A stretch of DNA of 50,410 nucleotides, the filler included, from Jimgerdemannia flammicorona (Eukaryota): assembly GCA_003990765.1 (NCBI GenBank). It is 2 parts of 2 records of this genome, joined end to end, with 100 filler letters (N's around TTAATTAATTAA, not from the genome) between each part and the next. Parts side by side here need not be neighbours in the genome. Positions count along the whole stretch, not along the records: positions 1 to 25,156 come from RBNJ01000874.1; 1 more part is not named here. One strand, 5' to 3'. Positions 5,661 to 40,751 of this stretch are shown here, piece by piece. The notes beneath the pieces were generated by a model that was not told the DNA's origin, ran no database searches, and saw nothing but the letters and a program-made list of their open reading frames with translations. The translations under genes were made by a program, and so were the position numbers. How positions within the stretch are numbered: the stretch's first letter is position 1; each line of letters opens with the position of its first letter.

Positions 5661-7520
5661 ATGGCTAGTCAAGGTTCCTCTAGCTCTGAGTGTCTGGTGA
5701 GGAGGGGGCCTGGTCTGGGTATTCCCAAGAGCTTTGCAGCTACTGCCAGGACTAGTGTGGCTACAGGAAGAGCTGGTGGACAGGGGAGGACTGGTGGGAT
5801 TGAGGTCTGGCATATGGTGGTGGAGAATAGGAGGACTGCAGTTAGGCCCATGGGAGTTGGGCAGGGGGGGTATAGTGTTGACAGGGAGAGGGGTCAGGTG
5901 ATGAGTCAGGTGATAGGTCAGATGGCTGGCAGGGGGCAGGGGTCTGGTGGTGCAACACTGGAGACTGGTTCTTCTGTGGCTGAGCAGGTGGCTAGGGAGA
6001 GGACTGCTGGTGGTGCAGCTGTACCTGGTGGGACAACTGTAGGTGTTTCAGAGACCAAGAGAAAGGTGACTCTGGCAGCAGAGACAGGTGAGCTGGTGGT
6101 GAGGCCTTTCTTCCACAAATCAGTATTGACATGGACAGTCTCGGTAAACTTCCTGAGATTGGCAATATCAGTGAGAGAGGTTCTGAGGCTGGTGGGGGAG
6201 GAAGTGGCTGGGGCAGAGTCTCTGAAGTTCATTCCTTCGGCAGAGGCTGTGGAGATTGGATTTGTGGAGAAGGATACAATGGTGAAGGCACTGGAGAAAG
6301 GAATGATGGTCAAGGGCATCTGGATTAGGATGGCAAGGTGTCTGAGATGGGATCCATGTGCTGTTCGGCTGGTGGTAGAAGGATTGCCAACCCAGGGCAG
6401 ACAAGAGACCAAGGAGATAGTGGTAGAGGCACTGGGAGGATATGGTGAGATGGTGGACTTTGGGTTCATGTTCTGGGAGGATACCAAATTTCAGAATGGC
6501 AACTGCAAGGTGATGCTGTGACTGGAAGGCAAGGAGGCTACTGGGCTGGACCATGATTGGTTTGAAGGGATTAGAATTGGGGGGCAAGAGTGCAAGATGT
6601 GGAGAAGGAAGAGAGCAGAACAGGAGGAGGAAGAGTTGGTGATTGCTCTGGAGGAGAGAGAGGCTGCTAAGGAGCTGTGAAAGAGAAAGTGGGAGGAGTA
6701 TACCAAGGACTGGATCTGGATTGAGGCTGATGGCAAGAGGAAGAGATGGAGGAAAGAGAACTGGGAGCATCTGCAAGCAGCCCTTCAAGGTGCAGCTGTG
6801 GAAGAGAAGGCAAGAGTAGAGGCAACCAAGAACCAGATGGAAGGAGTGGAGATGGCAGAGGTGTCCTTTTCTCAGCTGGGTGGTATAGAGAACTCAGCAC
6901 ATGTGCTGGTGAGAGAAAAGTAGGCAGATAAGGAGGAGGTTGGTGGAGGAGGCTTTGAGGTAGATAATGAAGTGGTGCCGGAGACTCAGGTGGAAGATAC
7001 CCATATGGCTAGGGCAGCGAATATCCATTGGGAGTGCCCAGAAGCTGGTGAGGTTATTCATTTGGAGAAAGTTGCAGAGGAGGATGAGCTGGTGGATGTG
7101 GCTTCTGATGTGTTGGCAGACAGAGAGCAACTGCAAGAACTGAGCAGGACCCCCAGGCCATTGACTCCTGGGCCCCTGGTGATGACAGCAGAGAGCTGGT
7201 ATCAGGCAGTACTTGAGGAGTTGGCAGAGGAAGACATCAAGGAAGTGGATGTGTTTCATGGATCTCAGAAGTCATAGGAAGGATTCCTCAATGTAGCAAT
7301 GCAAGAACCTAAGCTGGTGACAGTGATGGTTGCCACCCTTCTGGATAATAAAGGATATGATGTTGACAAGAGCAGGATGGCTGACATCAGGAAGGTGGCA
7401 ACAGAGAGAGTTGATCTTTTTTGCAGCAGTGCCAATAGTGATCAAATCTGGAGGGAAATTTGCAAGAACTAGCAAGAGATCATTAGAGGAAGGGCTGAGA
7501 AGGTGGTGGCAGTCTTAGCT
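5661..7520 (+). pseudogene. LINE B ORF1 (RRM-like nucleic-acid-binding protein followed by a charged region)
   Basis: 286-aa ORF ending at a TGA that is probably ex-CGA. VRLVVEGLP...ALGGYGEMVD is ORF1/RRM-like, followed by E/K/R-rich fragments. The 3' end is approximate. Confidence 0.8.
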
Positions 7521-7541
7521 GAGCTTTACACAATTTCCTTT

Positions 7542-10500
7542 ATGATGATGAACAATCTACATATTTTGTCAATCAATATCAATAGATTGTGGGATGGTGT
7601 TAAGAGATAGTGGCTTTTCAGATGGCTTAAAGTCAGGAGGTATGATGTTGTATTTCTTCGGAATGTTCAAGCTTATAGTGAGTTGGACTATGAGATGTAG
7701 AGTAAAGAATGATATGGTGGAGTGAGTTGGAATAAGCAGGTGGGCATCTTGGTTGGTGTGGGCAAAGGCAAGCTAGTGGAGGTAGAGATCTATGGTGACA
7801 GACTGATCTGGGGAAGACTAAAAGGTGGGATAGGTGATGGCTTGATAGTTGGCTCAGTTTACCTCCCTGCAGTTAGTAGAGAGCAAAAGCAATGGGTTGA
7901 GAGATGGCAGGCATGAAATGGTCAGGAGGTAGTTGCTTTGGACATTCTGGGGGGGGACTTCAATATGGTGTATGATCATATACTAGATAGGTCTGATGGT
8001 AGAGCAGAAGTCATGGTATCTTCTGGACTTACTTGATGGCTGCAGGTGGAGAGTGACATGGGTTTGGTGAATGGCATTCATCAATGACAGGGGGATAAGT
8101 TGGGACCTTTTACCTGGTGGCATCCAGTTGGAACAGCATTGGTTGAGATGTGAATTAATTGAGTGCTAGTGGCAGAGTACTGGGGCAATATACTGGATAC
8201 TGCTGGGGTGCACTGGTGCCCATGGTCTGATCACTGGGGAGTAGAGGTTTGTGGTAGATTCCAAGCAGCAAGCTGTAGTGGAGGGTGCTAGCACCTCAAT
8301 GTAGCCTTATTCAGAAGGAAAAAGGAGAGGGACAATTTTGTGACAGTTATGTGACAGGAAGTTTTGTGATGATGGAATGAAGGGCAGTTGATAGCAGAAT
8401 AGTGGGGTAAATTCAAACATTTGGCTGGTGCTTACTGGTGTGATGTTGGGAAAGTGACTGAGAAGGAACAGAAGGACAGAGAAAGGAGGGTAGAGAAGGG
8501 GCTGAGATGGCAATTGAAGCTTTTGGAAAAGGAGTACTTGTCTGGAGAGGTGTACCACTGGTTGGTAGTAGAGGTGACAGAGTTGCAGGTGGACTTAAGG
8601 GTGTCTGAGACCAGGGTGGTAGATGGCCTGCTAGCCAGACTGCGAGCTCAGAGGTTGGAAGAAGGAGAAAGGCTGATGAGATATCTGTCTGGTGTTTTGA
8701 AGGCCAGGAGAGTATGTCATAGTTGGGCCTTAGTTTTGCATGAAGATGGAGTAGAGGTCTCTGAAATTGCTGACATGATAGGGGAGGTATCCGGTCAATG
8801 GCAAGCTCTTTGGCAGGATGGAGATGAGTATGCTGAAGTTACTGGGCATAGGGAGGATAATGACAATATGGTGACCAATTGGCCAGTAACAGCAATACCT
8901 GAAATAGAAGAGGTGGTTATGGGGGAGGTGTCTCTAGATGAAGTATTGGAAGTACTGAGGAAGACACAGACTGGTTTGTCTCCTGGAGAGGATGGGTTGC
9001 CCTGGGAATTCTGGAAGGAGTTCAAGACTGAGTTTGGTGACTGATTGGTGGAGATGGCCAATGCTGTTCTGAAGGAGGGTAGCTGGATTGGCAATGGTTC
9101 CTTGGGACTGGTTTCTCTTCTATACAAGGAGAAGGGAGATCGACGAGTGTGGCATAATTGGTGACCTATCATACTGCTGAATGTAGATAGAAAGTTGGTG
9201 TCAAAGATTCTAGCAGGGAGGATGCAGCAGTATGTTGGTGTGCTAGTAGGCAAAGAGCAGCATGACTTTGTCAAGGGGAGGCAGATCAGAGATAGTACTG
9301 CTTGGGTGCAGAATGTCTTGGAGAGTTATAGGAGCCAGCAGGTGGATGGCCAGATGGTCTTTCTGGATCAAGAGAAGGCCTATGACAGAGTGTGGTGGAG
9401 CTATCTGGAGGCTGTTCTGAGGAGGGCAGGGTTCGGTGCAGTGGAGGCAGGGTGACTGATGGGCTTGGTATGGAGATGCTGAGCAGCAGTTATGATGAAT
9501 GGATGGTATGGACCAGAGTTTGCCTTGGGGAGAGGGGTACCACAGGAGGATCCTCTCTCCCCCCTTCTTTATGTACTTTTTCTAGAGTCTTTGCTGGCAT
9601 GGCTGAAGGAGTAGCTCTCTGGACTGCAGATGGGAGATGTGGTCTGGCAGTTGGGTGCCTTTGCAGATGACATAGTGGTAGGGGAGGATGTAGTAGTCCT
9701 ACAAGAAGGGGTTGGGCAGTACAATAGGCTAGTAGGGGCAAAGTTGAATTGGGGCAAGTATGAGACAATGGAACTTAGTACTGACCTGGGGGGACATGGA
9801 CAATTCAGACAATTGGTAGCCACAGGGAGTGCTGTTTGGTATCTGGGTATCTGGTTCTCAGTATATGGGACAGTCCTGCTAAGGGAGTGGTGATGTGGAT
9901 TAATTCAGAAGCTGGAAGGTGCATTGACAGATTGGTCAGGAAGGAGCTTCTCTTTGGTTGACAGAATAGTGGTTTTGAATGTGTATTGGTTGCCCAAACT
10001 GTGGTATCTGGGTTACCACCTGGATTTTCCAGAGTGGGTGGTGTAGCAGCTAAAGAAGATTGTAGAAGGGTGGATTTGGCATGGCAGACATCTGCAGATT
10101 GGATGGGAGACTTTGGTGATGAGGACTTCTGATGGAGGCCTGGGGCTGGTGGATTTCAGGTGCCAGCTAAAGATACTTCAGGGTTGGTGGGGGTGCCAAA
10201 TGATAGAACTTGGTGAGGAAGGTTGGGGTAGGCTGGCTATAGACAATTGGAAGGTCCAGTTCTGCTCTAGAGATGAGGTCTGGAAGGATATGCAGAGCTT
10301 GCTTCAGGTTAGAAGTGTAGGTAGACTGCAGTTTAAGGGATTCTGGTAGAGCATTGTAGAAGCCTGGCTGGCCATGGGGTTGGCAGGCCCAGAGATAGAG
10401 GTGGAGCAGAGATGGTAGTGATTGGGAGACCTGTGCATTGGTAGCCATAGTCTGAAGGAGTACTCTTTGATTGAGGCAATGGAGTGGATCAGGTCTGGCC

Positions 10501-11150
10501 CTCTGGAGATATGGCCACCTGGTTGGTAGAGAGCTGGTGTTGGTGAGGACTGGGAGTGGGTTCAAATTTGGAATTGGGGAGCCTTGGTATGCAAGATGGT
10601 GCCTCTCAAATACTGGGTGGTTTGGTGACAATTCTTGAGGTATAATGTGATGCTGAGCTATCGGACAGGCTGGATGGAGGTAGATGGCTATAGGGACCGT
10701 AAGTGGTATAATGAGATAGATGGAGAGGTTGTTCAGATGCTGGAACATGTTCTGGGGGCCTGCCCAGGAGTAGAAGAGTTTTGGCAGTGTTTAGAAGATT
10801 ACTGGGGCCCAGAGAGGCAAAGGGCAGAGGACCTGGCCAGTCTGGTGGTTAAGCACTAGCTGGTAGGGGAAATTAGTGATACATGGAGGAGTCTAGGTCA
10901 AGTTTTGAGGGTCTGGATCTTGATGGCAGTGCACTGGCGGTGGATTTTTGAACAGGACCTATGGATGGGGATTGGAGAGATGGTGGAGCAGTGGAGGTGG
11001 CTTATCCAGGAGGTGGTTCAGGGGTAGTAGTATCAGGGGAGGCAACTTCAGCCAGAGGCCTTAAAGAAGATGTAGGATATTGTATAGCAGAGTCAAGGAT
11101 ATCTGGTATTAGATAATAGTGGGGTACAATGGAAGGAAAGAGTTGGCTGA
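7542..11150 (+). pseudogene. LINE B ORF2: APE endonuclease, RT, C-terminal Cys/His region
   Basis: APE motifs LHILSININRL, GSVYLPA, ILGGDFN, FTW, WSDH. RT motifs SPGEDGLPWEFWK, FLDQEKAYDRV, FADD, WYLGI, GGLGLVD. C-terminal EHVLGAC. Confidence 0.93.
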
Positions 11151-11243: not shown

Positions 11244-11278
<35 letters not shown>

Positions 11279-12014
11279 ACTACTTAGAGACTTAGTATAC
11301 AATATATACTAAGAAGTCTTCATTTTGAGGAAGTGCTCACTTGAAAGTAATTATAGCAGTAGTGCCTTATCATTTAAAGATCTTTCTCTTTTGCTCTATC
11401 TTTCAAGAGTTTTGTTCATTACTGTGCACAGACTGAATTTGCCTTGGAACTCAGGTTCAATAGGTTTACTTAAGTCTTTAGAGATTTATATATCAGTCTC
11501 AGTGTTGGCAGAAGTTAGCTAGGCTTCTGGAGTTTAGTCAGAAACACTAGAGTCACTTAGATATCATTACTAAGACTCAGGGGAATATGTGTGTATGGGG
11601 GACTTGATTCTTGTATCAAGGACTAAACTATAACTGCTTTATTTTGAATAGAAACTGGGGGATATTTATACAAGTTGGTCTATGATTTTCTGACTAAGTA
11701 TGAGTGACTAATTTGGTAACTATAGTGAGATTTGTAATCATGACCTTTGTTAGGTAGTTTTTGGCAAAAACAACTTTGTGATCAGAATCTCAATTACTAG
11801 GTAATGATCAGCTGCTGTGACAATAGTTACTGCAGTACTGATTTTTAGGAATAAGCTGAATATTATTTTTCATATCATTTTCCACATTGTTCATTTATCA
11901 TTCATAATATCATATATCATACTTGATCATAAGATGACATTATTACTCACCAGGTCACATGATTGCTCATCTCATTGTGTCTCATCTGTTCACTTGTTTG
12001 TTCATTCTATTACA

Positions 12015-14364
12015 TTCTTTCCTCTTTAAAAATCAACATTCTTGTTGATTTGAAAATTGAGAACCAGGGGAGAGAAAGATGGGGAGTCTTCCTCAGTATT
12101 GTTGCCATCTTCTTCAGTAGTAGGGGGGGTGATTACTGATGGCTCACTGTCCAGGATAGAGAAGTCAATAAGATCTGCAAATAGTTCTTACATTGGTATG
12201 AACACTGGTATAGGGGTTCTCTATCTGATGTGGTTGAGACCATCTAAGTAGGGTTCTTGATCTTTATATCTAGGGATATCCATTTGGATAGGTGGTTCTT
12301 CAAGGAGGTCAGAGAGGCCTTGGAGCTATTAGTCTGGGTTGTTATTCAGAAGGGGGCTCCAGTGGGGCTTGATATCAGTAGACTTGAGGGTAATTACAGG
12401 AGTTGACTTCCTGGGCTATCATGATCTCTAGTTCATCAACCTCAGAGAAGAAGAGGTTCTGGAAGTCCTTCAGTTATATATAGTTGAGGTTAGGAATTGC
12501 AAAGGGTGCATGATACATAATTTGATAAACCTTCTTGGTAAGTCTTTGCTTGAGCCTATCTAGGTAGGTCTAGTCTGAGATCTGATCAGTAGATAGGCCA
12601 TTTGTATTTTGAAGAAGCTGGTGGCTAATTTTATATTTATGTCAGATCTCTAGGCAGCTGGTAGTAAGATAGGCCTTTTCAGTAAGTTTATGATGGTCAA
12701 GAACATACTGTCTTAGGTCCTTGCTGGAGAGGTTAAGGGCCTCAGAGTGGTAGTTCCTTCCTTGGATAGCAATCTGAATATATCTAAAGAGGCAGTCAAC
12801 CTGGCTTGGGAGAGGTTGGCTACAGTGGACAGTTTGCTAGCAGATAGCAGGCATTCTTATCTTATCTTTTCTTTATAAGGAGAGGGGGATAAGAGTTGCA
12901 GAGTATTCTGGCCTTGGGTATTTATACTTATTCCCCTGTCTGGTGTGACCTTCTTTTGATTATACTTTCCAGCAGGAAATGTGTGACCTGTTACTATAAG
13001 TAGAGCATGTACTAGTCATATGAGAAAAAATCCTGATTTCAAAAATATCACCACTTGGTATTGTAGTTACACAGGGTTGACAGATCTTGGTCCTCTTTTT
13101 TTTTTATCTAATTAGTGTATTTGTAAGGACTAGCCATCCTTATTTAGGATAAGGGCTCTCATTATTACAACTAGGGGTTCAAACCTCTTAGAAATAGTAT
13201 TTCTTATAATCTGAGACAATTTCTATTAACAATATCTGTCATATGGATGGGCTTAGATTAGTTTCAATATTATTGGTTTTCCTAAGTTCCATATGAAGTA
13301 TTTGTTATCATCTAGTAGAGATGACACAAATGGTATAAAATGGAGTTGTTTAAATACATTTTGCTATACTATACTAGATTGTCCTTCACCTGAGTGTTTT
13401 CTTATTAATTATAGTGTTCCTTTTTCTGCAATATTTAGTATTAATGTTTTGAATAAAATATATCATATCTTATTTACTATGTGCTCTAATTTTTAGAGCT
13501 ACAGTTCCTTCTTCTGCTGGGGGGTGAGTGTTTCCATATAGTTCTGGAGAGGTTCACATACATTCTCTAGAGCTTCTTCCTTTTTCTAGATAGTGTCATG
13601 GGTGGGGTAATCCTTCCACTTGATGAGAAAAAACTGCTTGACTGTTTTGGGATATTTGTGAATCTTGTGATCAAGTATTTACTCAATTTTAAATTCCTTG
13701 TGATTATTGATTCTAATTGGGGTTAGTGGTGGAACTATATACTTGAGAAATAGGTTCTCATAGTAGTTCACCAATTGGCTGATATGGAATACTGGGTGTA
13801 CTCAGATATTATGGAGAAGTTGTAACTTATAGTTGACTTTGCTAACTTCTTCCACAATCTTGTATAGTGTAATTCTTCTAGCATGGAGTTTCTTGGCCAG
13901 TTGTTATGCCAGGGTGTCTGGGTGGAGATAGTCTGTTCTAAGCATGACTATGTCACCAATATTATAGGAGACTTCTCTTTGCTTCAAGTTTGCATACTCA
14001 GTCTAGTAGTCTTATACTTCTATAAGAGCATCTCTTGTTATTTGGATAAGGTCAGAAATAGTCTCAGCCAGATCTTGAACTGCTGGGACTACTAATTTTG
14101 TAGTAATACTTGGGGTCCTTGAGTATTAACTGTGGTTCAGGAAGAATGGGGTCTTCTTTATAGAGGTTTACTGGCTATTATTATAGGCAAACTTGGCATA
14201 GGCTAGGTACTTGTCTCAATCATTCTGCTTATAACAGTAGAAGATACTAAGTATCTGTTTGAGAGTCCTATTGGTTCACTCAGTTTGACTATCAGTCTGA
14301 GGATGGTAGACAGTAGAGAACTTTAGCTTAGTTTTATGGAGAGAGAAAAATGCCTTCCAGAAGT
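12015..14364 (-). mobile_element. Partial Gypsy-1 copy (a): integrase C-terminal half, chromodomain, spacer and accessory ORF3, attached to the 5417-12014 LTR
   Basis: Collinear with 16065-18420 of the complete copy. Ends abruptly at an orientation switch at 14364/14365. Confidence 0.93.
12026..12854 (-). pseudogene. Gypsy-1 accessory ORF3, copy a (unknown function)
   Basis: ATG at 12854 and TAA at 12026-12028 next to the PPT. Collinear with 16076-16903, with a net 1-nt indel. Confidence 0.7.
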
Positions 14365-15268
14365 AGCTGAGATCTGATATACTACCCATGAGAAGGAACT
14401 CCTGGCCATTATCACTACACTCCAGGAATAATGCCACTTCCTCCTAGGACTATTATTTGTAACTTATACTGATCACTATACTCTATGATATATTCACATA
14501 TAGCCCATACTGACCAATAGATAAGCTTGCTGAATGGAAATTATTGTTAACTTTAATATAGAAATCAAGTATATCCCAGGCAAAACCAACTGTATGCCTG
14601 ATGGTTTCTCCAGATATATAGAAGATGAACTTATCTTTATAGTCAAGATAATTAGAGATCTTACACAGATAATAAAGAATGACCACCAATAGGACAGCTC
14701 TCTGGTAAATTTCCTTCAATTCTACTAAGATCCAGAGGCCAAATTCCAAAATCTATGAGACAAATGTCCAAAAGATTTACTTACTGTAATAGACTTATCT
14801 ATAAGGACCATGACAGAGTAGTTGTATCTAATAATAATACTCTGTGACTCAAGATCATACAGGAATTCTATGACACTTTTGTAGTAAGATATTTTAATTT
14901 CAAAAAGACCTACAATCTCCTCTCAAGAGAGTTCTACTAGCCAAAGATGACTAAGAATATTAAAATTTTTATGGCCTTATGTGAGATACATATACCAAAG
15001 GTTCAAAAGTAGTAATAAGCTATCTGTGGGACTTCTGCAACCCCTGTCTATCCTGAGTCATAACTAGAATCAGATTGCAATGAACTTCATTATTTAGCTT
15101 TCCAAGACTAAGATAGGATGAGATACTATTGTAGTATTTGTAAACTGCCTAAGGAAATAAGTCTATTTTACACTCCGTAAGACTATTACCACAATACCAG
15201 AGATTGCTGAGATCTTCCTCAACTAAGTATTTAGGCTCTATAGTATGCCCAGTACTATTGTATCTGAC

Positions 15269-16064
15269 TGTAATAACTCTTATTTCTACCCCTCTCTTAT
15301 CCTTTGAATAATTAGGGAAGTAAGACTATTACTTAGAGACTTAGTATACAATGTATGCCAAGAAGCCTTCAGTTTGAGGAAGTACTTGCTTAAAGTAGTT
15401 GTAGTAGTAGTATCTTATCTTTTAAAGGACTTTCTCTTTTGCCCTATCTTTCAAGAGTCTTGTTCTTTGCTGTGTACAGATCAAATTTGTCTTGAAATTT
15501 AGGTTCAATAGGTTTACTTAAGTCTTTGGAAATTTATATACTGGTCTCAGTTCTGGCAGAAGTTAGCTAGGCTTCTGGAGTTTAGTCAGAAACACTAGAG
15601 TCACTTAGATATCATTACTAAGACTCAGGGGAATATGTGTGTATGGGGGGGACTTCATTCTTATTTCAAGGACTAAACTAAAACTACTTTATTTTGGATA
15701 GAACCTGGGGGGTATTTATATAAGTTGGTCTGCAATTTTCTAACTAAGTATGAGTGACTAATTTGGTAACTATAGTGAGATTTGTAATTGTGACCTTTGT
15801 TAGGTGGTTTTTGATAAAAACAACTTTATGATCAGGACCTCAATTACTAGGCAATGATCAGCTACTATGGCAATAGTTGCTGTGATGCTAATTGTCAGAG
15901 ATAAACTGAATATCATTTTTTACATCATTTTTCATATTGTTCATTTATCATTCATAATATCATATGTTATACTCGATCATATGATGATATTACTACTCAC
16001 CAGGTCACATGATTGCTCATCTCATTGCATCTCATCTGTTCACTTGTTTGTTTGTTCTATTACA
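15269..16064 (-). repeat. Gypsy-1 3' LTR (796 bp)
   Basis: TGTAATA...TATTACA termini; TATAAATACC on the minus strand at 15711-15720. Confidence 0.96.
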
Positions 16065-16077
16065 TCCTTTCTTCCTT
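16065..16077 (-). promoter_or_regulatory. Polypurine tract
   Basis: AAGGAAGAAAGGA on the minus strand abutting the 3' LTR. Confidence 0.85.
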
Positions 16078-16903
16078 AGAAATTAACTTTCTCATTGATT
16101 CAGAAATTGAGAACCAGGGAAGAAAAAGGTGGAGAATTTTTCTCAATATTATTGCCTACTTCTTCAATGGCAGGGGAGATAGTTGCTGATGGCTTGTTGT
16201 CTAGGATAGAGAAGTCAATGAGGTCTACAAATGGTTCTTGCATTAGTATGAGTATTGGTATAGGAGTTCTCCATCTAATATGGTTGGGGCCATCCAAGTA
16301 AGGTTCTTGATCCTTATGCCTAGAGATATCCATTTGGATAGACAGTCCTTCAAAAAGGTCAGAGAGGCCTTAGAGTCATTGGTCTAGGTTGTTATTTAGG
16401 AGAGGGCTCTAGTGGGGCTCAATGTCAGTAGACTTGAAGATAATCCAGAAGTTGGCTTCTTGAGCTACCTTGATCTCTAGCACATTAATCTCAGGGAAGG
16501 AGAGGTTCTGGAAATCCTTCAGTTGAATATAGTTGAGATTGGAGATTACAAAGAGTGTATGGTGCATGATTTAATAGACCTTCTTGGCAAGTCTTTACTT
16601 ATACCTATCTAGGTAGGTTCAGTCTGAGACCTGGTCAGTAGGTAGGTCCTTTGTATATTGGAGAAGTTGGTGGCTGATTTCATATTCATATCAGATCTCT
16701 AAGTAGCTGGTAGCAAGATAGGTTCTTTCAATAAGTTCATAGTAGTTAAGGATATACTGTCCTAGGTCTGGGCTGGAGAGGTTAAGGGCCTCAGAGCAGC
16801 AGTTTCTTCCTCAGATAGCAACCTGGATATATTCAAAGAGGTGGCCAACCTGGCTTAAGAGGGGCTGGCTACAGTAGACAGTTTGGCAGTAAGTAGTAGG
16901 CAT
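16076..16903 (-). pseudogene. Gypsy-1 accessory ORF3 (~275 aa, unknown function)
   Basis: Single frame from ATG 16903 to TAA 16076 (828 nt), including the listed ORF 16100-16333. Internal stops are transition products, e.g. TGA here versus CAA in copy a implies ancestral CGA. Confidence 0.75.
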
Positions 16904-17571
16904 TCTTATCTTGTCTTTTCTTTATAAGGAGGGGGGGATAAGAGTTGTGGGGTATTCTTGCCTTAGGTATTTATATTTATTCACCTATCTGGTATGACCT
17001 TCTTTTGGTCATGCTTTCTAGCAGAATGTGTGACCTATTGCTGTAAGTGGAGCATATACTGGTCACATGAGAAAAAATTCTGATTTTAAAGATATCACTA
17101 CTTAGAGTTGTAGTTATACAGAGTTAACAGATCTTAGTCCCCTTTTTTTTTGTCTAGTTGGTGCATTTGCGAGGACTGGCCATCCTTGTCTAGGGCAAGG
17201 ACTCTCATTATCATAGCTGGGGGTTTGAACTTCTTGGAAATAGTATTTCTTGTAATCCAAGACAATTCCTAGTAACAATATCTATCACATAGATGGACTT
17301 AGATTGGTTTTGACATTATTGGTTTTCCTAAGTTTTATATAAAGCATTTATCATCATCCAGTAGAGATGATACAGATAGTGTGAAATAGAGTTGTTCAAA
17401 TACATTTTGCTATACTGTGCTAGATTGTCTTTTGCCTTAGTGTCTTCTTATTGATTAACTATAATGTTCCTTTTTTCTGCAATGTTTAGTATTATATGTT
17501 TCAGATAAAATATATTGTAACCTTCTTGTTTGCTATGTGCTCCAATTTTAGAGCTACAGTTCCTTTCTTTG

Positions 17572-17754
17572 CTAGAGAGTGAGTGTTTCCATATTATTCT
17601 GGAGAGCTTCACATATATTCTCCAGAGCTTCTTCCTTTTCCTAGATAGTGTCATAGGTGGGATAACCCTTTCACTTGATGAGGAAAAACCACTTGACTGT
17701 TTTAGAATATTTGTAGACCTTGTAATCAAGTACTTCCTTAATTTCAAATTCCTC
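17572..17754 (-). other. Integrase C-terminal chromodomain
   Basis: EEFEIKEVLD...FLIK*KGYPTYDTI*EKEEALEN matches the chromo consensus, with Trp codons mutated to stops. Confidence 0.88.
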
Positions 17755-20700
17755 ATGATCATTGATCCTGATTGGGGGTGGTGGTGGAACTGTTTGCTCA
17801 GAGAATGAGTTCTCATGGTAGTCCACCAATTGACTGGTATAGAATACTGAGTGTACTCAGATATTGTAGAGAAGTTGCAACTTGTAATTGACTTTGCTGA
17901 CTTTTTGTACAATCTTGTATAGTCTAATTCTTCTAGCACAGAGTTTCTTGGCTGGTTGTTGTGCCAGAGTATCTGGGTGGAGGTGGTCTATTTTAAGTAT
18001 GACTATGTCACTAATGTTATAGGAGACTTTTCTTCATTTCAAGTTTGCATACTTGATCTGGTTGTCCTGTGCTTCTATAAGAGCATCTCTTGTCATTCAG
18101 ATAAGATCAGAAATGGTCTCAGCCAGATCTTGGGCTGCTGGGACTACTGATTTTGCAGTAGTACTTGGGGTCCTTGGGTATTGACTGTAGTTCAAAAAGA
18201 ATGGGGTCTTCTTTATAGAGGTTTGTTGGCTATTGTTGTAGGTAAACTCAGCATGGGCAAGATACTTATCCCAATCATTCTACTTATAACAGCAAAAGAT
18301 GCTAAACATCTGTTTGAGAGTCCTATTAGTTTGCTCAGTTTAACTATCAGTCTGGAAGTAATAGACAGTAGAGAACTTCAGCTTGGTTCTATAGAGAGAT
18401 AAGAATGCCTTTCAGAAGTTGCTTGTAAACTTGGCATCTTGGTCAGATATAATAGTGCTAGGTATGCCATATAGCCTAAATACTTGGTTGAGGAAAATCT
18501 CAGAAATCTCTGGTGCTGTAGCAGTGGGCTTGGTGGGTGCAAAATGGGCTTGTTTGCTTAGGTAGTCTATGAATACTACAATGGCATTCCATCCTGTCTT
18601 GGTCTTGGGGAGCTGAATAATAAAGTTTATTGCAATCTGATCCCAGTTATAACTTGGGATAGGCAGAGGTTGTAGAAGTCCTGCTGGTAGCTTGTTACCA
18701 CTTTTGAACCTTTGGCACATCTTGTATGAGACCACAAAGTCTTTGATGTCTTTAGTCATCTTTGGCCAGTAGAACTCTCTTGAGAGGAGATTGTATGTCT
18801 TTTCAAAACCAAAGTATCCTACTGCAAGAGTATCATAGAGTTTCTGCATAATTTTGAGTTACAGAGCATCATTGTTAGGTATAACCACTCTTTTATGATC
18901 CCTGTAGATAAGTCTATCATGGAAAGTGAATCTTGTAGACATTTGTCTCATGAGTTCCAGGACCTTAGCCTCTGGGTCTTAGCATAATTAAAGAAAATTC
19001 ATCAAGGGGCTGTCTTGCTGATAGCCATCCTTGATCATCTGGGTAAGATCTCCAATTACCTCAACTATGAAGACAAGTTTGTCTTCCATATACCTGGAGA
19101 AACCATCAGCCACACAGTTGGTTTTGCCTGAGATATACTTGATTTCTATATTGAAGTTGGCAATGATTTCTATCCAGTGGGCTTGTCTGCATGTCAGTAT
19201 GGGCTGTGTATAGATATATATACCATAGAGTATAGTAATTAGTATAGGCTACAAATAGTTGTTCTAGGAGGAAATGGTGCCATTCCTGAAGTACAGTAAT
19301 AATAACCAGGAGTTCCTTCTCATGGGTGGTATACTAGGTCTCAGCTGGCTTGAGCTTTTGGGAAAGATAGGCTACTGGGCAATCTTCTTGACTGAGTACT
19401 GCCCTAATGACAATATCAGAGACATCTGTGGTCAGAGTAAATAGCTTAGTAGGGTCAGGTGCAATTAGCACTAGAGTCTCAGTAAGGAGTCTCTTGAGAT
19501 GGTCCATAGTCTGGATATATTCAGGAGTCCATTCAGTCTTGATGTTTACTCCTTTGTGGGCCAGGCTGGTCAGTAGGATTGCAATAGTAGAGTATCCTTG
19601 GATAAACCTTTGATAGTAACTAGCAATACCCAGAAAGCACTAGAGTAGCTTGAGGGTAGTAGAGATAGGAATATTCTTGAGGGCTAATACTTTTTGGAGG
19701 TTCACATTGATATCTTCAGTAGAGATGATATGTCCTAAGTACTCAATCTAGTCTTGATAGAACTTATACTTACTCATCTTAGCATAGAGCTGGTATTTTC
19801 ACAGAAGGGTCAGTATCTGTCTGAGGTGGGTATAGTGTAACTCTACTGTTTCACTGTAGATTAGTATATCATCAATATATACAAGGATACAGATGTTGAG
19901 GAGTAGTCTAAAGATATTATTTATCAGATACTAGAATATTGCTAGTATATTTATTGGTCAAACCAAAAGATATGACTTGGAACTGGTAGTGTCCAAACTA
20001 TATTCAGAAAGCTGTCTTTTCAATGTCCTTCTCATCAATGAGAATTTGGTGGTAACCATTTTACAAGTCTAGTAGGGAAAAGGTCTTGGTCTTGAAGATC
20101 TAGTACAACAACTCATCAATCCTAGGCAGGGCATACTGGTTCTTGATGGTGATCTTGTTGAGGGCTCTATAGTCAATACACATTTACAGAGAGCAATCCT
20201 TCTTCTTGATAAATAGAATGGGAGCTCCAAATGGAGAGTGGCTGGGTTCAATATATCCTTGGATCAGTAGTTTGATCAACTCATCCTTGAGGGTCTTGAG
20301 TTCAGGTTGGGCCAGTTGATAGATACTCTTGTATGGAGGTTCAGATCCTGGAATGAGATCAATTTCATGTTGAATTTGGCACTTGAGTGGGAGTCCTTAA
20401 GGGTCTTGAAATACTTCTTAGAATTCCTCAAATAGTTCTTGAGTTTCTGTTGGGATTGGGCTACTTGGAGCTTCTGTAACTTCTTGTACAGTTCAGATGA
20501 AGTAGGTGTTTCCATTTTTTTTGGAAGAGTCTCTTCATTTTGATGGCAGAGATGATTTCAATTCCTTGATGATTGGTACCTTCCTGGGGTGTCAGGGTGA
20601 TCTTTCTGCCTTTATGAGTCAGATTAACCTCATTGGTTCTCCAGTTGATATCTGGGTTATGCTGGGTCAACCAGGCTTTTCCTAGAATAATGTCTTGTCC

Positions 20701-21273
20701 TAAGAGGTCTACAATACTGAAGTCCAACTTCTCTTGATATTTTCCAATCTTGAGCAAGAGATCTTCACAGATCTTAGTCAGTGGTATAGTCTTACCATTA
20801 TCAAAGGTAACACACCTTTTCTCAGTAGCTGGTCTGCTTCGGGCTCCAATCCTCTTAGTAGTCTTGGTGCTAATATAGTTTTCAGTAGTACTACTATCAA
20901 GCAAAATATTGATATTCTGTCTGTGGACTTGGTCTGTGAACTTGATACAACTGTCCTTCTTCTTAATGGTATTGAGTTCTTTATTCTCATTGTTGTTGTC
21001 CCAATTACTGTCAGTCTCCTTGAAGTCAGTTTCTCCCTATCCTTCACAAGGAGAGTAGTCCTGTTTAGACTCCTCAGTCTGTTGGGCTTAGCACTTCTTG
21101 AATTGAATTTTGAAAACTTTGGAGAGGTATACATGATATTTACCAAAATGTTCTATACAGTACATTCAGATAGAATAAGGGTATCATCTACATAGTGCAT
21201 AACTATCTACAATTCTCTTATACCAGTTTTCATCATCTTTCTTCATAGTGGTGACCTTTTGACCAGGAGATTT

Positions 21274-21690
21274 ATTGGTTGATCCAAACTCTTTCTTGTT
21301 ATAGTCTGTCTGGGAGAGCTTGGAGACTTCTTCAATGGTGAGATCTTGATGGATTTCTTCAATGATTGCTTGGACAATTCTTTGGCCTACTTTGACTTCA
21401 AATGAGATATCTCCAAAATTTTGCAAGATAACATAGATTTTGCCAGTAAATCCTTAGTCAACTACTCCTCCTCCTAGTCTAATGTTAAACTCTTTGGCTA
21501 GGCTGCTTTATTCAGTAAGGCAGATATATGTACTGTTGGAAGCTTGCATTGCAATCTCTGTTTGCACTGTAACATTGGTACTGGATGGAATGGTGAGGTC
21601 TTGGCTACTATAGAGATCATATTCAGCATCAGTGGGATGAGCCTTAATGGGGATGGTAGCCTTATACCATATCTTTTGTACTTTGATAAC
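21274..21690 (-). pseudogene. dut: dUTPase domain embedded in gag-pol between the zinc knuckle and the protease
   Basis: All five trimeric-dUTPase motifs occur in order: DAEYDL (DAGYDL), *SSLA (RSSLA), GGVVD*GFTGKI, GQRIVQ (GxRIAQ), YNKKEFGST (RGxxGFGST). Confidence 0.9.
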
Positions 21691-22110
21691 ATTCTTAGAG
21701 TTCTTCTTTCCTGGACCTTTTCCAATAACAGTAATGTTCTGGTTACTGAGTTCACCTGATCTGTTTCTCTTCTCAGGGCATTTGAATGAGATGTGTCCTG
21801 TCTTCTTATAGATAAAGCATAATATTTTTTCATGAAGCTGCTTTTTTTCATCCTCAGTAAGAGGTCTTGGTCCTCTGGGATTTTGCTGGTTCCTTTGATC
21901 ATTTCTTTGGTCATTCCTTTAATTATTTCTCCTGATGAGATTCCTCCTATCTTGGTTATTTTTCTTGTATTCTGGATTTCATGGGGCCTATGCAGTAAGG
22001 ATTTCATAGGATCTTCTTTGTACTTAGGCAAAGCACCATGAGTAGTGGGGACATTCTTGGGAGAGGTCTTGTTCCTTAATCTTCTGAGTGAGCCAGTCTA
22101 GTAGGGCTGC

Positions 22111-22126
22111 AAAGAGATGATTAACT

Positions 22127-22160
<34 letters not shown>

Positions 22161-22171
22161 ATGGTTAACTC
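22111..22171 (+). mobile_element. Poly(A)-only retrotransposition scar inside gag
   Basis: AAAGAGATGATTAACTC (22111-22127), an A-run, then AAAGAGATGGTTAACTC (22155-22171): a 17-bp TSD with one transition. Confidence 0.85.
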
Positions 22172-23680
22172 TGGTACCATTGATGACTAAATTAGTTTCC
22201 TGATAGATAAGTTCAATGGTTTTGAGGTAGGTAGCTATTCTAGTGGCAAAGGTTTTGAGGTCCTCTTCATCATTCTTATAGAACTTCATCTGGACTAGTT
22301 TGTTCTAAGTTTCTTATATATAGACTATATTTTAGAATTTGGTCAATAGTAAGGTCTTGAGTTCTGGGCCTGCTTTATAGTCAACTCAACCTAGTCTGTT
22401 ATGGGCTTATGCTTGTCCATTGACTGGGGGCAGTCTTTCCAGGTTACTGGGTATTATTCCAAGGTATATCAGAATTTAGCTGCTGTTCCTATAAAGAATG
22501 TGGCTACTATTTCCACTTGTGCTACTGATGTGACAAACAACTGTTGAAGGGTGTGGTTCTGGTTATTAGTGAGTATTCCTACAGATACTTAGTTGTCATT
22601 CTATTGGTTTGCTTGATAACCTATATCAACTGTATTGATGAAGTTTTTAATGTCACTGTTTTTTCCACTAAATGTTAGAATTTAGAAGGTCTTGGTTGGT
22701 TTGTTCTGTTCAGCAATTTGTCTTACTATCTCTGCTACTGTGGCTAGCTAGGTAGTCAGTGCTACAATGTTGATATCTACCATTGTATTGACTATTGATA
22801 GTAGTCCTATGGGGGTAGATTCTCCTGAAGATTGTTCTGTCTGATAGGATTATAGTGCTATATGACTTGGGGTTACTTGATTCCCAGATATCAGATCAAA
22901 GAGTCCTGTGAGAGAGAGTAAACCAAACCTCTATATAGGTGGCTAGATTGATTCTAGGGTCCTATCTTCTTGACCTGTAGTTTCTTGGTAAATTCCTAGG
23001 CCTGCTGTTCCTTGTTGGCTATCATCAGACTGGTAACCTATAGAGTTCTCATCTGACTCCCTTCTCTGATGAGATAGTGCATCCTTATACTAACTAGGTC
23101 CTTCAAAGAGGATATCAGTTTCTGGCTAGATAGATGGGTCTGGTTCTTGTTCAGCAGTAGGAGATGGGTGACCTACTTGCTCATTCTCATCCCTAGTTAT
23201 ATATAGCAGAGACATAGTATATAACTAGCCTGTAGTAGAGTGAGGTCTTGGTGAGAGTATGATGACATCTGTCAGAGGTAATCTACTCGGCAGCTGCTTT
23301 CTTTACATCAGGGGGTGAGATATAATCTAGAAAATCCTGGGTGGCTATAGTAGTAGATTCTGGGGTCTTGGTGGTTCCAATATATCTATGGAGAAGTTCA
23401 TAGAACTTATGGTAGCTGACTATATTCCTAAGTCCTGGGTGGTAAGTTCTAAAGGCCTGATATAGATCCTTGTAAGTCTGGTCAATTAAAAGCTTGTAGG
23501 TCTCTGGGTCTGTAGTTTTCTGGTACCACTTGGTCCTAATGACAAGGGCTTCCCTGGCTCTGGTTAGGGGGTTTGATCCTAGAGAATCCACAGTTAGTTC
23601 TGGGGGTTACTCCTGTCCAAGGTTGGTCTTGTTCCAACTTCAGAAGTGTGTTCTTGGTGCCTTCTTGGCTTGGTAATCTA

Positions 23681-23689
23681 CTGCTACCA
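23681..23689 (-). promoter_or_regulatory. Primer-binding site, initiator tRNA-Met type
   Basis: TGGTAGCAG on the minus strand, 3 nt inside the 5' LTR. Confidence 0.75.
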
Positions 23690-23692
23690 AGT

Positions 23693-24487
23693 TGTAATAA
23701 CTCTTATTTCTACCTCTCTCTTATCCTTTGGATAATTAGAGAAATAAGACTATTACTTAGAGACTTAGTATATAATGTGTACCAAGAAGCCTTCAGTTTG
23801 AGAAAGCACTTGCTTAAAAATAGTTATAGTAGTAGTACCTTATCTTTTAAAGGTCTTTCTCTTTTGTTTTATCTTTCAAGAGTCTTATTCTTTACTGTGT
23901 ATAGACTGAATTTACCTTAGAATTCAGGTTTAATGAGTTTACTTAAGTCTTTAGAGATTTATATACTAGTCTCAGATCTGGTAGAAGTTAGCTAGACTTC
24001 TGGAGTTTAATCAGAAATACTTAAGTTACTTAGATATCATTACTAAGACTTAGGGAAATATGTATATGTGGGGAGGACTTGATTCTTATATCAAGGACTA
24101 AACTAAAACTGCTTTATTTCAGATGAAAACTGGTGGATATTTATATAAGTTGGTCCATGATTTTCTGACTAAATATGAGTGACTAATTTCATAACTATAG
24201 TGAGGTTTGTAATTGCAATCTTTGTCAGATAGTTTTTGGCAAAAACAACTTTGTAATCAGGACCTTAATTACTAGGCAATGATCAGCTACTGTGGCAACA
24301 GTTGCTATAGTGCTGATTGTTAGGAATAACTTGATATCATTTTTTGCATCACTTCCACATTATTCATTCATTATTTATAATATTATATATCACACTTGAT
24401 CATATGATGACATCATTGCTCACCAGGTCATATGATCACTTATCTCATTGTATCTCATCTATTTACTTACTCGTTTGTTCTATTATA
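23693..24487 (-). repeat. Gypsy-1 5' LTR (795 bp)
   Basis: TGTAATA...TATTATA (terminal CA mutated to TA); direct repeat of 15269-16064. Confidence 0.96.
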
Positions 24488-25156
24488 CTGACTAAGATAC
24501 CAAGTATACAAGCAACTTCTAGAAGACATTCTTCTCTCTATAGAACTAAGCTAAAGTTCTTTACTACCTACTGCTCTCAGACTGATGGTCAGACTGAGTT
24601 AATCAATAGGACCCTTAAGTAGATACTTAGTATCTTTTGCTGTTACAAGCAGAATAATTGGAACAAATATCTAGCTCATACTGAGTTTGTCTACAATAAT
24701 AGCTAGTAAACCTTGATGAAGAATACCCCATTCTTTCTGAACTATAGTCAACATCTAAGGACTCTGAGCACCACTGCAAAATCAGCAGTCTCAGTAGCTC
24801 AAGATCTGGCTGAGACTATTTCTGACCTTATCCAAATGACAAGAGATATATAGGACTACTAGACTAAGTATGCAAACTTAAAGTAAAGAGAAGTCTCCTA
24901 TAGTATTGGTGACATAGTTATGCTTAGAACAGACCATCTCCATCCTGATATCTTGGTATAACAACTAGCTAAGAAACTCTATACTAGAAGAATTAGACTA
25001 TATAAGATTGTTACAAGTTGCAACTTCCCCACAATATTTGAGTATACTCAGTATTCTATATTAGCAAACTGGTAGACTATTATGAGAATATATTCTCTAT
25101 ATATACGGTTCCACGACCATCTCCAATTAGGATCAATGAGTATGAGAAATAAAAAA

Positions 25157-25256
25157 NNNNNNNNNNNNNNNNNNNNNNNNNNNNNNNNNNNNNNNNNNNN
25201 TTAATTAATTAANNNNNNNNNNNNNNNNNNNNNNNNNNNNNNNNNNNNNNNNNNNN
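25157..25256. other. Artificial contig-joining linker (44 N + TTAATTAATTAA + 44 N)
   Basis: A six-frame-stop 12-mer centred in an exactly 100-nt gap. Confidence 0.95.
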
Positions 25257-25840: not shown

Positions 25841-26383
25841 TAAGTATACTGCCAACCAGTCAAGCTATATAAGAACCTTATCTTAGAACTAGGAGAACAG
25901 ACCATCTTTGAAATTCTTATACCATCTGATTCTAGAAATCTCTTCTTTGATCCCAATAAGGACCTCAAGATCCTGGATATAGAAGAATATATATTTTCTA
26001 ACAAGATGAACCTTGTACACTCTTGAGCAATTAACCAAGACTGAGACAGTCTCATTTTGTTAAAAGAAATTATTATAGGCTATCTGGTATCTTATCTTAA
26101 TTAGATATATAGAGAAATTTATAAACTATACTTATTGAAAAATAGCAATAGATCTCAGAAGAAAGAAAAGACCTCTCTATATACCAGAAGAAAGTAAAGC
26201 CTTCTACCAATATTGAAGAAGAATTGACCTTACAGCAATAGCAGCAACTAGTAGAACTTCTTCAAAAATATCAGAATATCTTCATCACAGACTATGACAA
26301 CCTACTATATAACTTATTATATTACTATAGTATAAGTACAGAATATATAACACCTATCTAACAGAAGCCTTATAGAATACCTT

Positions 26384-26535
26384 TATTGAAATATCTTAGT
26401 TATAGCAACTTGATATATTGTGGCATAGCCTGACTATATCATTATTTGTAAATATCATCAATATGAATAAAAGTATATAAGATATTAATAAATAACTGTA
26501 GCTCTTCTCTCCACTCTTCTAAGTAATCCACAATA
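26384..26535 (+). repeat. Copia 5' LTR (152 bp)
   Basis: TATTGAAAT...CAATA (TG...CA mutated); direct repeat of 31209-31360. Confidence 0.9.
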
Positions 26536-26609
26536 AAGATTATTAGCCCTACTAGTGAAAGTAGATCACAAAGACAAAAGACACTCCTCTAATATATATA
26601 CTATACTAT

Positions 26610-29600
26610 ATGAATATATCAAATCTAACAGGTATGTCAAGCATGAGTCTTCTAAGTAGTATAAGCAGAATGGGATCCAGAATGGGTACTGGTAGTATAA
26701 GCATATCTAATATAATAGTCATAACTACAACTATTTCTGCAATAGTGCCAACAATAGTAAAAAGGATGATTTCTGTCTTTAATTATAAGTATTATACTAT
26801 ATGGATATACTATATGAAGAATCTCTTGAAAGAATATAGTCTGAAGGATTACTGGAAGCTATAGGTACAAATAATGAGATATGATACTATAAAGTACTGA
26901 GAGAGATTACTTTTACTCTTTTAAATATACAAATAAAACTCATCATTAATTTTATGATAGTAAATGAAGCCTGGAAGATCTTATATAATCACCATCAGCA
27001 GGCATCTGTATCAAACAGATTCCACCTAAAAGTACAGCTGTTCAATCTCTAAATGAAGTCCAAGAAAAGCATCTAGGACTATATCAACTGTGTCAATAAT
27101 CTGATAAATCAAGTGAATTCCCTTTCTATGCTAGTAGATACTATCAAGGATGAAGTCAAGATTCTAGCCCTTATGTATAGTCTTCCTAAGACATATAATG
27201 TAGTTGTCACTGCTATGAGGAAATCCAGCAAACTATTAAACTATAAGCATATTATCATGAGCCTTTTAAATAAGAAAATGAGGCTGGGTGGTAACAATGA
27301 TAATAGAGATAATAAGAAAGTATTCTATAGAGCATATGGATAAAGCAAAGGTAAACCAAACAAAGGATAAGGGCAAATGCAGTACAATGGTTAGTATGAT
27401 AGTCAATGAGCCAAATTTGATAGTAAATATTTCTAATATAATAAGCATAAATACTATAAGTAAGACTGTAACTATAAAAAGAAAGAAAAAGATGAACAAT
27501 GTAGACAGAAAAATATTATAGACACTAACAATAATGAAAGCAGTAGTAGTAGAGGTCTATTCTTCATAGAAGTAGTAATCTATCTATATGTAAAGAGAGA
27601 TTTAGGAGAAATTTGGGAAATATTTTTACACTATTGAAAAATATTGACATAAGTATCAGTACTAATATAAGCTATATACTGAGCACTTACACATATAGCA
27701 AAGAAGTCTGGTTTATAGATTCTAATATAATATAATATATACATAATAGTATACTATGAGTGGTTCTCTATATATGAGAAGTTCTACTCTATACCTATCA
27801 AATTAGATAACAATAACGTCATTTATGCTCAAGATAAGGGAAATTTTAATATACATTTATATGGATAAGTTGATGAACCTTCAGGCACCTTTATACATAT
27901 ACTATATACTCCAGATATAGATAGGAATCTCTCTCAATAGGCTGGATGATGGCTTGAGAAGATAATGGAGTATATATATATATTATCAAATAGTATAATG
28001 ATGATCAATATAAAGAACAATAAGAAGTTAATATATACATCAAAAGAGGGGAACCTATATACAATTGATAGCACACTAAGTAGTATATTATCTATATATT
28101 CTGTAATAATTAGAGAGAATCTCTGGTATATATAGTATAAATACTTAGAATACATTGGCAAGATGAGCTTAAAATAGATAATAAAGAGTAAGTCTGTATA
28201 CAGATTACTGAATAATATGTATATTACCAGATTTCAGTTTTTATAATAGATGTATAGCAAATAAGACTTCCTGGTGACCTTTTCAGAAATAGATGAAGCA
28301 AGCAGCTGGTATTCTCAACATAATATATATATGGATATCTGCAGCCCTATATAAATGGTAATATACTTCAGAAAGAAGTATTTTATTACTTTTATTGATA
28401 ATTATACTTGCAAAGCCTATATACTTCTTTATAGTAAAAAATGGAATATTTAAAAAATTCCAAGAATTTAAGGTAATTGTGGAGAATGAAACAGAATGTA
28501 AGATATGGACTCTATACTCAGATAATAATAAGGAATATATCAATAAAACCTTTAGATACTTCTTGAAGAAGTATGATATTTAATACTCTATAATTAATAG
28601 TAGAGATAGCTTGAATAATGATAAATATAGCTGACTTATCACACTCCTTCTGGGCTGAAGTAGTGAATACTGCAGTATATATCTGAAATCATTGTATTTC
28701 TTTGATCTCTAAGTAAGAATTCCAGTAGATCTAGCAGATCTAGCAATTATTAATTTAGGAATAATTAATAATTCAGAAATGATCACTGAAATAATTAGTA
28801 ATCTAGAAATGATAGTGATCTTACTCCTGAGAAATTATGGAGTAGATCTAAGCCTAATATTTCACACCTATGGATATTCAAAGCAAATTTTAGTCTAAGG
28901 TAAATATGCATATATTCCTTAGATATAACAGAGCAGTATATAGATTGTAAAATCTGTAGAAACATTATATAATTATCTCTCATAACATTCAATTCAAGGA
29001 GACTAAGCAGAAAATTTATATGGAAATTTCTATCTCAACCAATCTGATAGTATAGCTAGCAACAACTATGCCAACTTCAAAGGTAAGTGAAATAGTACCT
29101 ATACCAGTATTAGTATAACCCATATATACTAATGAGGCTATCAGAGCTAAGAATTACAAAAATTACAGATAAGAATAATAATGAGAATATCTCTCTAAAG
29201 AATAAGAAAAGTGCAAATCTAGACTATAAAATGAAGTCAAAGTAGATTTAGAAGATTATTGGAACCAATCTAAGATATCTTATTATAGACATTATATAAA
29301 CTATATCTGTGAGTATATATATATAGCAATGACTAGTGAGCTAGCAAACTATGATGAAGCTATATACTCAGATGATAAAAAGGAGTGGAAAAAGACTATA
29401 GATGAGAAATACAATTTACTTATCAAGAATGATATATGGGATTTAGTCTCTCTTTCAGCAAATTGACAAGTAATAGAATCCTGCTAGATATAATGTCAAA
29501 TATAATAGCAATAGTAATGTAGAATATTATATAGTAAAGAGATATTTATAAGGATATAGTGTAGACTATAATAAGACCTTCTTCCCAATATTCAAGCTTA

Positions 29601-40624: not shown

Positions 40625-40751
40625 ATCAAGAAAGATTGGCAGTGAGCCTGAAGTAGAAGTAAGGAAAAAAGAAAAAAACCCCCCAGTGGCTGGGGCCATT
40701 GGGGAAAAGAAGAACCCACAAAAAGGAAATGGAAAGGGTGGGAATGAGTGG

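Follow-up and report, generated by a model that had tools for sequence, protein, structure and literature searches.

ORFx, a decayed open reading frame (ORF) in the genome of the fungus Jimgerdemannia flammicorona (assembly GCA_003990765.1), is best explained as a true accessory gene belonging to a lineage of Ty3/gypsy chromoviruses, lying in the sense orientation between pol and the polypurine tract (PPT). The stretch of DNA that was analysed, referred to here as the window, comprises 50,410 nucleotides, filler included; its first 25,156 positions come from RBNJ01000874.1 and hold the element in question, a long terminal repeat (LTR) retrotransposon that we call element b, or copy b. We put the probability of this explanation as a whole, including the proposals on expression and function made below, at roughly 0.55. 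By sequence comparison we do show that the gene is real and element-borne and that intact relatives of it exist; the predicted protein is a member of a new family, encoded in a known kind of position and dead at this locus. Extra genes are what separates "complex" from simple retroviruses, and those of retrotransposons, least of all the fungal ones, are barely understood.

The ORFx frame and its intact relatives

In copy b, ORFx runs on the minus strand from an ATG at 16903 to a TAA at 16078-16076 (16076..16903, 275 codons plus the stop); it starts MPTTYCQTVYCSQPLLSQVGHLFEYIQVAI and terminates INEKVNF. The stop codon directly abuts the PPT GGAAGAAAGGA (16075-16065), and the TG of the 3' LTR follows at 16064. 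This is the 828-nt sense frame running to the PPT that a first-pass annotation of this DNA had described, without stating its strand. The second copy of the frame, in the truncated copy a (12026..12854, minus strand, 829 nt), has the same ATG and TAA, as had been reported, and is likewise followed by a PPT, AGAGGAAAGAA (12015..12025); it also carries a 1-nt insertion at codon 153 that had gone unmentioned, apart from which the two copies align without a gap. Nine in-frame stops interrupt copy b (codons 31, 71, 95, 103, 111, 165, 176, 178 and 268) and eight interrupt copy a (codons 6, 71, 95, 127, 175, 176, 211 and 222). The earlier statement that these stops can be rebuilt to sense codons between the copies holds for 11 of the 14 distinct positions, where the other copy has a sense codon, and can be extended to codons 95 and 176, where one copy reads TGA and its partner TAG, both derivable from TGG; it fails at codon 71, which is TGA in both copies and is settled only from outside, by relatives that have W in all seven cases covering this column.

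Taken singly, each ORFx copy has 8-10 stops, whereas the other two sense frames have 14 and 28. To count stops in all six frames, C>T and G>A changes were undone at the columns where copies a and b differ. The ORFx frame then retains a single stop in 275 codons, while the other five frames retain 7, 8, 8, 22 and 22; the genuine pol frames, used as a control, drop to 0 stops, and in a 547-nt stretch of the spacer between pol and ORFx each of the six frames retains 7-10 stops in 181-182 codons. We regard this comparison of the copies as decisive. Purine content by codon position (0.53/0.50/0.37 in ORFx vs 0.56/0.55/0.51 in the spacer) likewise reveals a three-base periodicity in ORFx that is absent from the spacer. 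An antisense gene in this region was considered and dropped, as the antisense frames retain 7-22 stops; because they stay closed, we read ORFx as a sense gene.

With the decayed window protein as query, nothing was found in Pfam or in a word-index search. An exhaustive search of 1.84 billion representatives with a HMMER profile of the two ORFx copies returned four proteins (E 2e-68, 1.5e-51, 2e-29 and 1e-5), and a word-index profile search with the ORFx profile returned seven; with cluster members, this amounts to 10 intact predicted relatives of 138-342 residues. All of them lie on ENA/JGI contigs of 0.8-4.8 kb from soil-type metagenomes, where they have either no name or the label "hypothetical protein"; a name taken from an annotated genome is absent throughout (10 of 10 are on short unnamed metagenome contigs). 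The profile search for a known accessory family, suggested in the first-pass annotation, thus matched no known family and only unnamed relatives.

The relatives bear directly on the stops of copy b. Besides the W at codon 71, they have W at codon 165 (10 of 10), Q at codons 111 (8 of 8) and 178 (10 of 10), and R at codon 31 (5 of 6); at codon 176 W is found in 3 of 10 and F in the other 7, and at codon 103 Q is found in 3 of 8, while codon 268 is variable, without outside support for a sense residue. The W, Q or R of relatives at seven of the nine copy-b stops provides an independent check of the decay that we reconstruct. The start MPxxx is also kept in four distinct relatives (P0014, P0004, P0005 and P0010) as well as in both window copies.

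For one relative, P0014, the surrounding DNA can be seen: it is encoded by an intact 291-codon ORF on a metagenome contig of 1535 nt, L001, and matches the window with 50.6% identity over 233 residues (tblastn, E 2e-64). On the 3' side of this ORF there is a TAA, then a PPT, AGGAGGGAGGA, and then an LTR start, TGTAATA..., that can be aligned with the window LTR. L001 has the same stop/PPT/LTR junction, and the accessory gene therefore sits where it does in the window, but in an element that has diverged and is not decayed. Counted over codon positions 1, 2 and 3, the transversions that separate L001 from copy b number 44/35/62, which has the shape expected under purifying selection, though the effect is modest. 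ORFx, in the window a sense-strand coding frame between the pol stop and the PPT, is thus found in both window copies that hold the region (2 of 2) and in L001, and the accessory gene in the env position that the first-pass annotation had proposed is borne out by the frame test, by the intact relatives and by the junction in L001.

Some further results of these searches can be stated briefly. A scan of viral contigs with the ORFx family gave none, and no fused or longer forms of the protein were found, which is weak evidence. The single match on a genome contig (L002) is an archaeal DNA-ligase-like ORF containing the pattern DTPDQWLQ; with 13 aligned columns and a probability of 42%, it was set aside as chance. 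In the otherwise diverged spacer, a block of ~100 nt is well conserved between the window (about 17230-17110, minus strand) and L001 (positions 1-100), e.g. AGGATGGCCA and CTGTATAACTACA; the frame open there in copy b is interrupted by a stop in L001, and the block therefore looks like a non-coding signal.

Every copy of the element in the window is dead. The pol genes are riddled with stops, with at least one frameshift in the reverse transcriptase, and the observed/expected ratio of CpG is 0.02 in element b (15269-24487) vs 0.5 in L001. Within ORFx, copies a and b differ at 161 of 828 positions, by 149 transitions and 12 transversions, and several of the stops are a CGA turned into TGA in one copy and into CAA in the other. 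This transition-driven erosion, with nearly all CpG lost, is the footprint of methyl-cytosine deamination. The two LTRs of b diverge from each other by ~15%, as much as a diverges from b; the differences between a and b are thus taken as decay after insertion, and dN/dS between these copies is for that reason uninformative.

Expression of ORFx

The first-pass annotation had placed a spacer of ~670 bp after the chromodomain stop. Such a spacer exists, but the stop from which it had been counted (17574-17572 in copy b) corresponds in copy a to CAG (Gln), and not until 17556-17554 do both copies have a stop; counted from there the spacer measures ~650 nt (16904..17553, minus strand). It is non-coding and contains 13 ATGs, the nearest at -109. 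Since ORFx lies ~650 nt and 13 ATGs behind pol, it should not be translatable from the genomic RNA and would need a subgenomic message, which would most likely come from an internal TATA-box promoter.

The motif behind this proposal, TATAAATACC, occurs exactly at 16975-16966 in copy b and at 12926-12917 in copy a (16966..16975 and 12917..12926, both on the minus strand), and in both copies 62 nt separate it from the ATG, close to the 65 nt or so given before. Two LTRs, the 3' LTR of b (15720-15711) and a solo LTR (3774-3765), contain the same 10-mer without a mismatch, and the other two LTRs contain it with one, so that the reported LTR-type TATA motif upstream of both ORFx copies is indeed there. 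The TATA core is aligned at -81/-72 in L001 (TATAAAAG), a and b, despite the diverged spacer around it and a protein identity of ~50%; in all three sequences the interval between TATA and start is free of ATG, and there is an A at -3. In L001, moreover, a 33-nt stretch is common to the ORFx upstream region (169-202) and the LTR (1480-1513), with 26 of 33 positions identical (GTCAGGCGGAAC...TCAGAACA...), a score that was reached by 2 of 1000 dinucleotide shuffles. Together this makes it plausible that ORFx was transcribed separately, from its own promoter. That the subgenomic message would start some tens of nucleotides downstream of the conserved internal TATA box is a proposal to which we give slightly less than an even chance.

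It is possible, though we lean away from it, that ORFx was instead expressed in the manner of a retroviral env: transcription would begin in the 5' LTR, and splicing to an acceptor in the pyrimidine-rich tract before the ATG would give the subgenomic RNA, with the TATA box being incidental. The tract reads CTCTTATCCCCCCCTCCTTATAAAG in b and CATCCCCCACACCCAAACAAAAAAG in L001, both pyrimidine-rich runs ending in AG; DNA this rich in A/T makes TATA-like words easily, and near-matches in the window number 14 vs 6 expected. Spliced messages are also described for sense ORFs downstream of pol in plants, e.g. in Bagy2, in the part of PMC7264820 available to us. What speaks against splicing with an incidental TATA box is that the TATA core keeps its position in L001 though the spacer around it has diverged; the internal promoter is our preferred proposal.

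The predicted protein and its possible role

No domain had been recognised in the first-pass annotation, and in our searches too none was found. In Pfam, all 13 family members gave only ATG5_HBR (E 0.028, three members) and DUF6887 (E 0.063, one member), both at chance level; the best match among PDB sequences had an E of 1.2, with none at E<1; and in the ESM Atlas the recognition value was 2174, below the mark of 2300, the best matches being unnamed clusters (0.89-0.92), one of them from Mucoromycota. An origin of ORFx from gag was tried and dropped, with an hhalign probability of 0.1-0.2%. The protein has no signal peptide or membrane segment and its N-terminus is hydrophilic: the Kyte-Doolittle mean over 19 residues peaks at 0.59-0.74 in four intact relatives, and at 1.45 in copy b. 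It thus resembles neither retroviral Env nor the env-like proteins, in agreement with the earlier remark that this is no obvious envelope glycoprotein.

The family is acidic, with an isoelectric point of 4.5-4.9. A conserved I-x-W-R-x-P motif is followed by a tail, which in four intact relatives has 56-126 residues and a net charge of -15 to -22, and in which the motifs F-x-D-L-I-x-F-[SE] and [VI]-L-N-F are conserved; the best 40-residue tiles of the tail have a net charge of -10 to -14 and 5-9 W/F/Y/L in all eight relatives examined. A low-confidence AlphaFold2 model from the 13-row alignment suggests helices in residues 21-188 and a small hairpin at 203-215, with the rest disordered. This suggests a soluble, acidic protein of ~275-340 residues, with a conserved and mostly helical body of ~215 residues and a disordered acidic tail. 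Acidic activation domains and docking tails typically have a composition of this kind, acidic and studded with hydrophobic residues, and here the tail might be the working part of a regulator or adaptor protein.

We tentatively suggest, by analogy and in the knowledge that any single role is doubtful at this stage, that the ORFx protein is a regulator or adaptor acting through its acidic tail and resembling the Tas protein of foamy viruses. A more specific version, which we regard as unlikely but worth stating, is that the internal promoter drives the element's own transactivator, whose helical body would recognise a sequence common to LTR and internal promoter and whose acidic tail would draw in the transcription machinery of the host, so that a Tas circuit would have arisen independently in a fungal retrotransposon.

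Other roles can be imagined. The protein might serve the integration or particle stage, as a histone-chaperone-like protein or as a docking partner of the chromodomain-integrase or of Gag, with the DLIxF and LNF motifs as its points of contact. Histone chaperones and adaptor proteins, too, have acidic tails in which aromatic or aliphatic residues are embedded, and the gene travels with a chromodomain integrase; against this, no similarity to any such family was found in Pfam, PDB sequences or the ESM Atlas, and we consider this role, too, unlikely. Very unlikely in our view is the anti-silencing factor, directed against host RNAi or DNA methylation, on which the first-pass annotation had speculated. 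The host clearly attacks these elements, as the loss of CpG in b relative to L001 indicates, but nothing direct speaks for such a factor and the suggestion is without evidence of any kind; Pfam, PDB sequences and the ESM Atlas gave no similarity to known suppressors, and the window copies were silenced and mutated nonetheless.

That ORFx is a transduced fragment of a host gene, without a role for the element, we regard as highly improbable. Capture of cellular sequences in sense orientation by retroelements does occur (PMC7264820, in the part available), but the relatives are limited to a small family on short metagenome contigs (the four representative matches in 1.84 billion), none of them fused to longer proteins, and a passenger should hardly retain its start, stop and PPT junction between elements with ~50% protein identity. 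A frame that is open by chance in a 3' untranslated region, with no gene at all, could point to the 8-9 stops per single copy, which are only about half of those in a typical frame, but deserves next to no credence, as it is in our judgement already refuted by the frame test and by the intact relatives (E to 2e-68), whose residues at seven of the nine copy-b stops it leaves unexplained.

Several observations nevertheless weigh against reading ORFx as an accessory gene with its own promoter and a regulatory product. As regards the gene, codon 95 is a stop in both copies, and the relatives have L, D or A there, so that the W we reconstruct lacks outside support; the bias in transversions by codon position is modest, indicating weak constraint or fast protein evolution; and since the DNA context is seen for L001 alone, the retrotransposon link of the other nine proteins is assumed. 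As regards the promoter, the window spacer and the LTR share the 10-mer only: local alignments of the two gave z = 1.3, -0.3 and 0.8, and transition-tolerant scoring gave z of -1.1 and 0.1. A duplication of the LTR promoter into the window spacer was for this reason dropped, there being no similarity past the 10-mer. The match between the upstream 10-mer and the LTR TATA adds little to the case for a promoter, as eight of the ten bases of TATAAATACC are generic TATA consensus and the two regions of the window have no further likeness; from base composition, by a rough calculation, TATAAATA has a chance of ~9% of occurring in a spacer this rich in A/T. Both in the window copies and in L001, the pyrimidine-rich tract and AG that immediately precede the ATG suit a splice acceptor equally well. 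As regards function, the structure model is poor (mean predicted local distance difference test score, pLDDT, of 41.8), so that no fold backs any function, and no DNA-binding domain was recognised in the family in Pfam or among PDB sequences.

We nonetheless believe that ORFx is of more general interest. It is cleanly defined, by its start, its stop and the PPT junction; it has intact relatives, a conserved TATA box and a tail of activation or docking-type composition, and it is thus a concrete candidate for asking whether retrotransposons evolve regulators of their own. It also illustrates that gene sets from which transposons have been masked can miss whole protein families.

The host element, its surroundings and related systems

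Self-comparison of the window identifies copy b as one complete LTR retrotransposon of 9.2 kb on the minus strand. Its 5' LTR (24487-23693) and 3' LTR (16064-15269), ~85% identical to each other, enclose an internal region at 23692-16065; the 3' LTR opens with TG and closes with ..TTACA. The element is flanked by a 5-bp target-site duplication, GTCAG, and has a primer-binding-site-like sequence, TTGGTAGCAG, in addition to its PPT, so that two LTRs, target-site duplication, primer-binding site and PPT, the marks of an LTR retrotransposon, are all present. In each LTR there are two TTAGTCA within ~45 nt upstream of the TATA box (15765-15725, 11715-11675 and 24190-24150, minus strand), a pair that we take to resemble AP-1/Yap-type bZIP sites.

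The domain order, gag-dUTPase-protease-reverse transcriptase-RNase H-integrase-chromodomain, is that of a Ty3/gypsy chromovirus with a C-terminal chromodomain. Pfam recognises RVP_2 (3.7e-9), RVT_1 (7e-12), RT_RNaseH_2 (1e-15) and Integrase_H2C2 (1.8e-15) in element b. The dUTPase (about 21184-21660) is matched by PF00692 at 21184-21453 (3.3e-8) and within 21508-21918 (4.8e-6), upstream of the protease (20461-21036) in the polyprotein, which is the arrangement of PosPlaTy3-3; it is followed by the protease, a frameshifted reverse transcriptase (about 19720-20210), RNase H (19106-19639) and integrase (18412-18858), all on the minus strand and all, with the primer-binding site and gag, within 17857..23692. 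The end of pol (17554..17856), comprising the integrase tail and the chromodomain, is too decayed in copy b for a match to Pfam Chromo, which exceeds its cut-off only on the corresponding stretch of copy a (E 1.4e-5, 25.4 bits vs a cut-off of 25.1).

Element b is inserted in the integrase of an oppositely oriented copy of the same family, copy c (14365-15268 and 24480-25150, plus strand). Copy c enters two runs of N (25157-25200 and 25213-25256), past which an ORFx region is not recognisable. The truncated copy a (11269-14368), with its LTR at 11269..12014 on the minus strand, lies beside this nested pair, and the solo LTR mentioned above is a fragment of the same family at 3510-3869 (minus strand, ~82% identical).

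Elsewhere in the window, an uninterrupted frame of 571 codons at 266-1981 (minus strand; RVT_1, E 1.3e-27) lies in a G+C-richer stretch (0.56) and is possibly a young non-LTR element, and long frames of a second, decayed non-LTR-like element are found at 5637-10790 (plus strand), with a strong skew of G over C (0.3-0.44). The stretch from 26000 to 34000 is very A+T-rich (G+C 0.26-0.29) and has repeats of its own (26384-26536 and 31209-31361); nothing resembling the chromovirus was detected there. A U6 spliceosomal RNA gene is located at 39569-39681 on the minus strand (Rfam RF00026, 72.3 bits, E 1.9e-16). Further on, a pair of 161-nt inverted repeats, 94% complementary (40464-40624 and 44991-45151), encloses a frame at 40861-41259 with a weak match to the tyrosine-recombinase family Phage_integrase (E 9e-5, below the Pfam cut-off); the region 40464-45151 is possibly a DIRS- or Crypton-like element.

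Among known systems, the closest analogy in function that we can propose is the tas/bel1 gene of foamy viruses, whose product, a transactivator expressed from an internal promoter, targets that promoter as well as the LTR, according to what is accessible of PMC8670036, PMC4929722 and PMC13220597. ORFx would share with Tas its place as an accessory gene behind pol, a promoter of its own and an acidic C-terminal part, and L001 has the element common to internal region and LTR. Foamy viruses, on the other hand, have env and infect animals, and there is no sequence similarity between Tas/Bel1 and ORFx: at E<=1 Pfam gave only the two chance-level matches, and among PDB sequences there was none at E<1.

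In position, ORFx corresponds to the class that Vicient and Casacuberta (2020; PMC7264820) call aORF-3S, i.e. sense additional ORFs between pol and the 3' LTR. As far as that paper is available to us, the likeness extends to orientation, to the presence across copies of a family and to a role without assignment; the plant and insect cases, however, are mostly env-like with membrane segments, while ORFx is predicted to encode a soluble, acidic protein, belongs to a fungal chromovirus and has no named kin. Among fungi, the Boty-like Gypsy elements of Botrytis cinerea carry an additional gene, brtn (Zhao et al. 2011, as cited in the available part of PMC8365987). Compared by description, brtn is like ORFx an extra, family-specific gene of a fungal chromovirus, but it is antisense whereas ORFx is sense.

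Closest in overall architecture are the fungal chromoviruses of Novikova et al. (2010; PMC2864245), which, in the portion of that paper at hand, are drawn with a dUTPase and/or an "add. ORF with unknown function". They resemble element b in being chromodomain gypsy elements in which, as in PosPlaTy3-3, the dUTPase is amino-terminal in Pol, and some of them have the extra ORF; the dUTPase elements come from Basidiomycota and Tuber rather than from an early-diverging fungus, and the extra ORF can be compared to ORFx by description only. The suggestion of the first-pass annotation that this may be an undescribed complex LTR lineage was thus overstated. In the literature on fungal sense accessory ORFs that we found, there is no description of the ORFx family. 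As far as these sources go, the combination of dUTPase and chromodomain has already been described in fungi, and what looks undescribed is the ORFx protein family itself.

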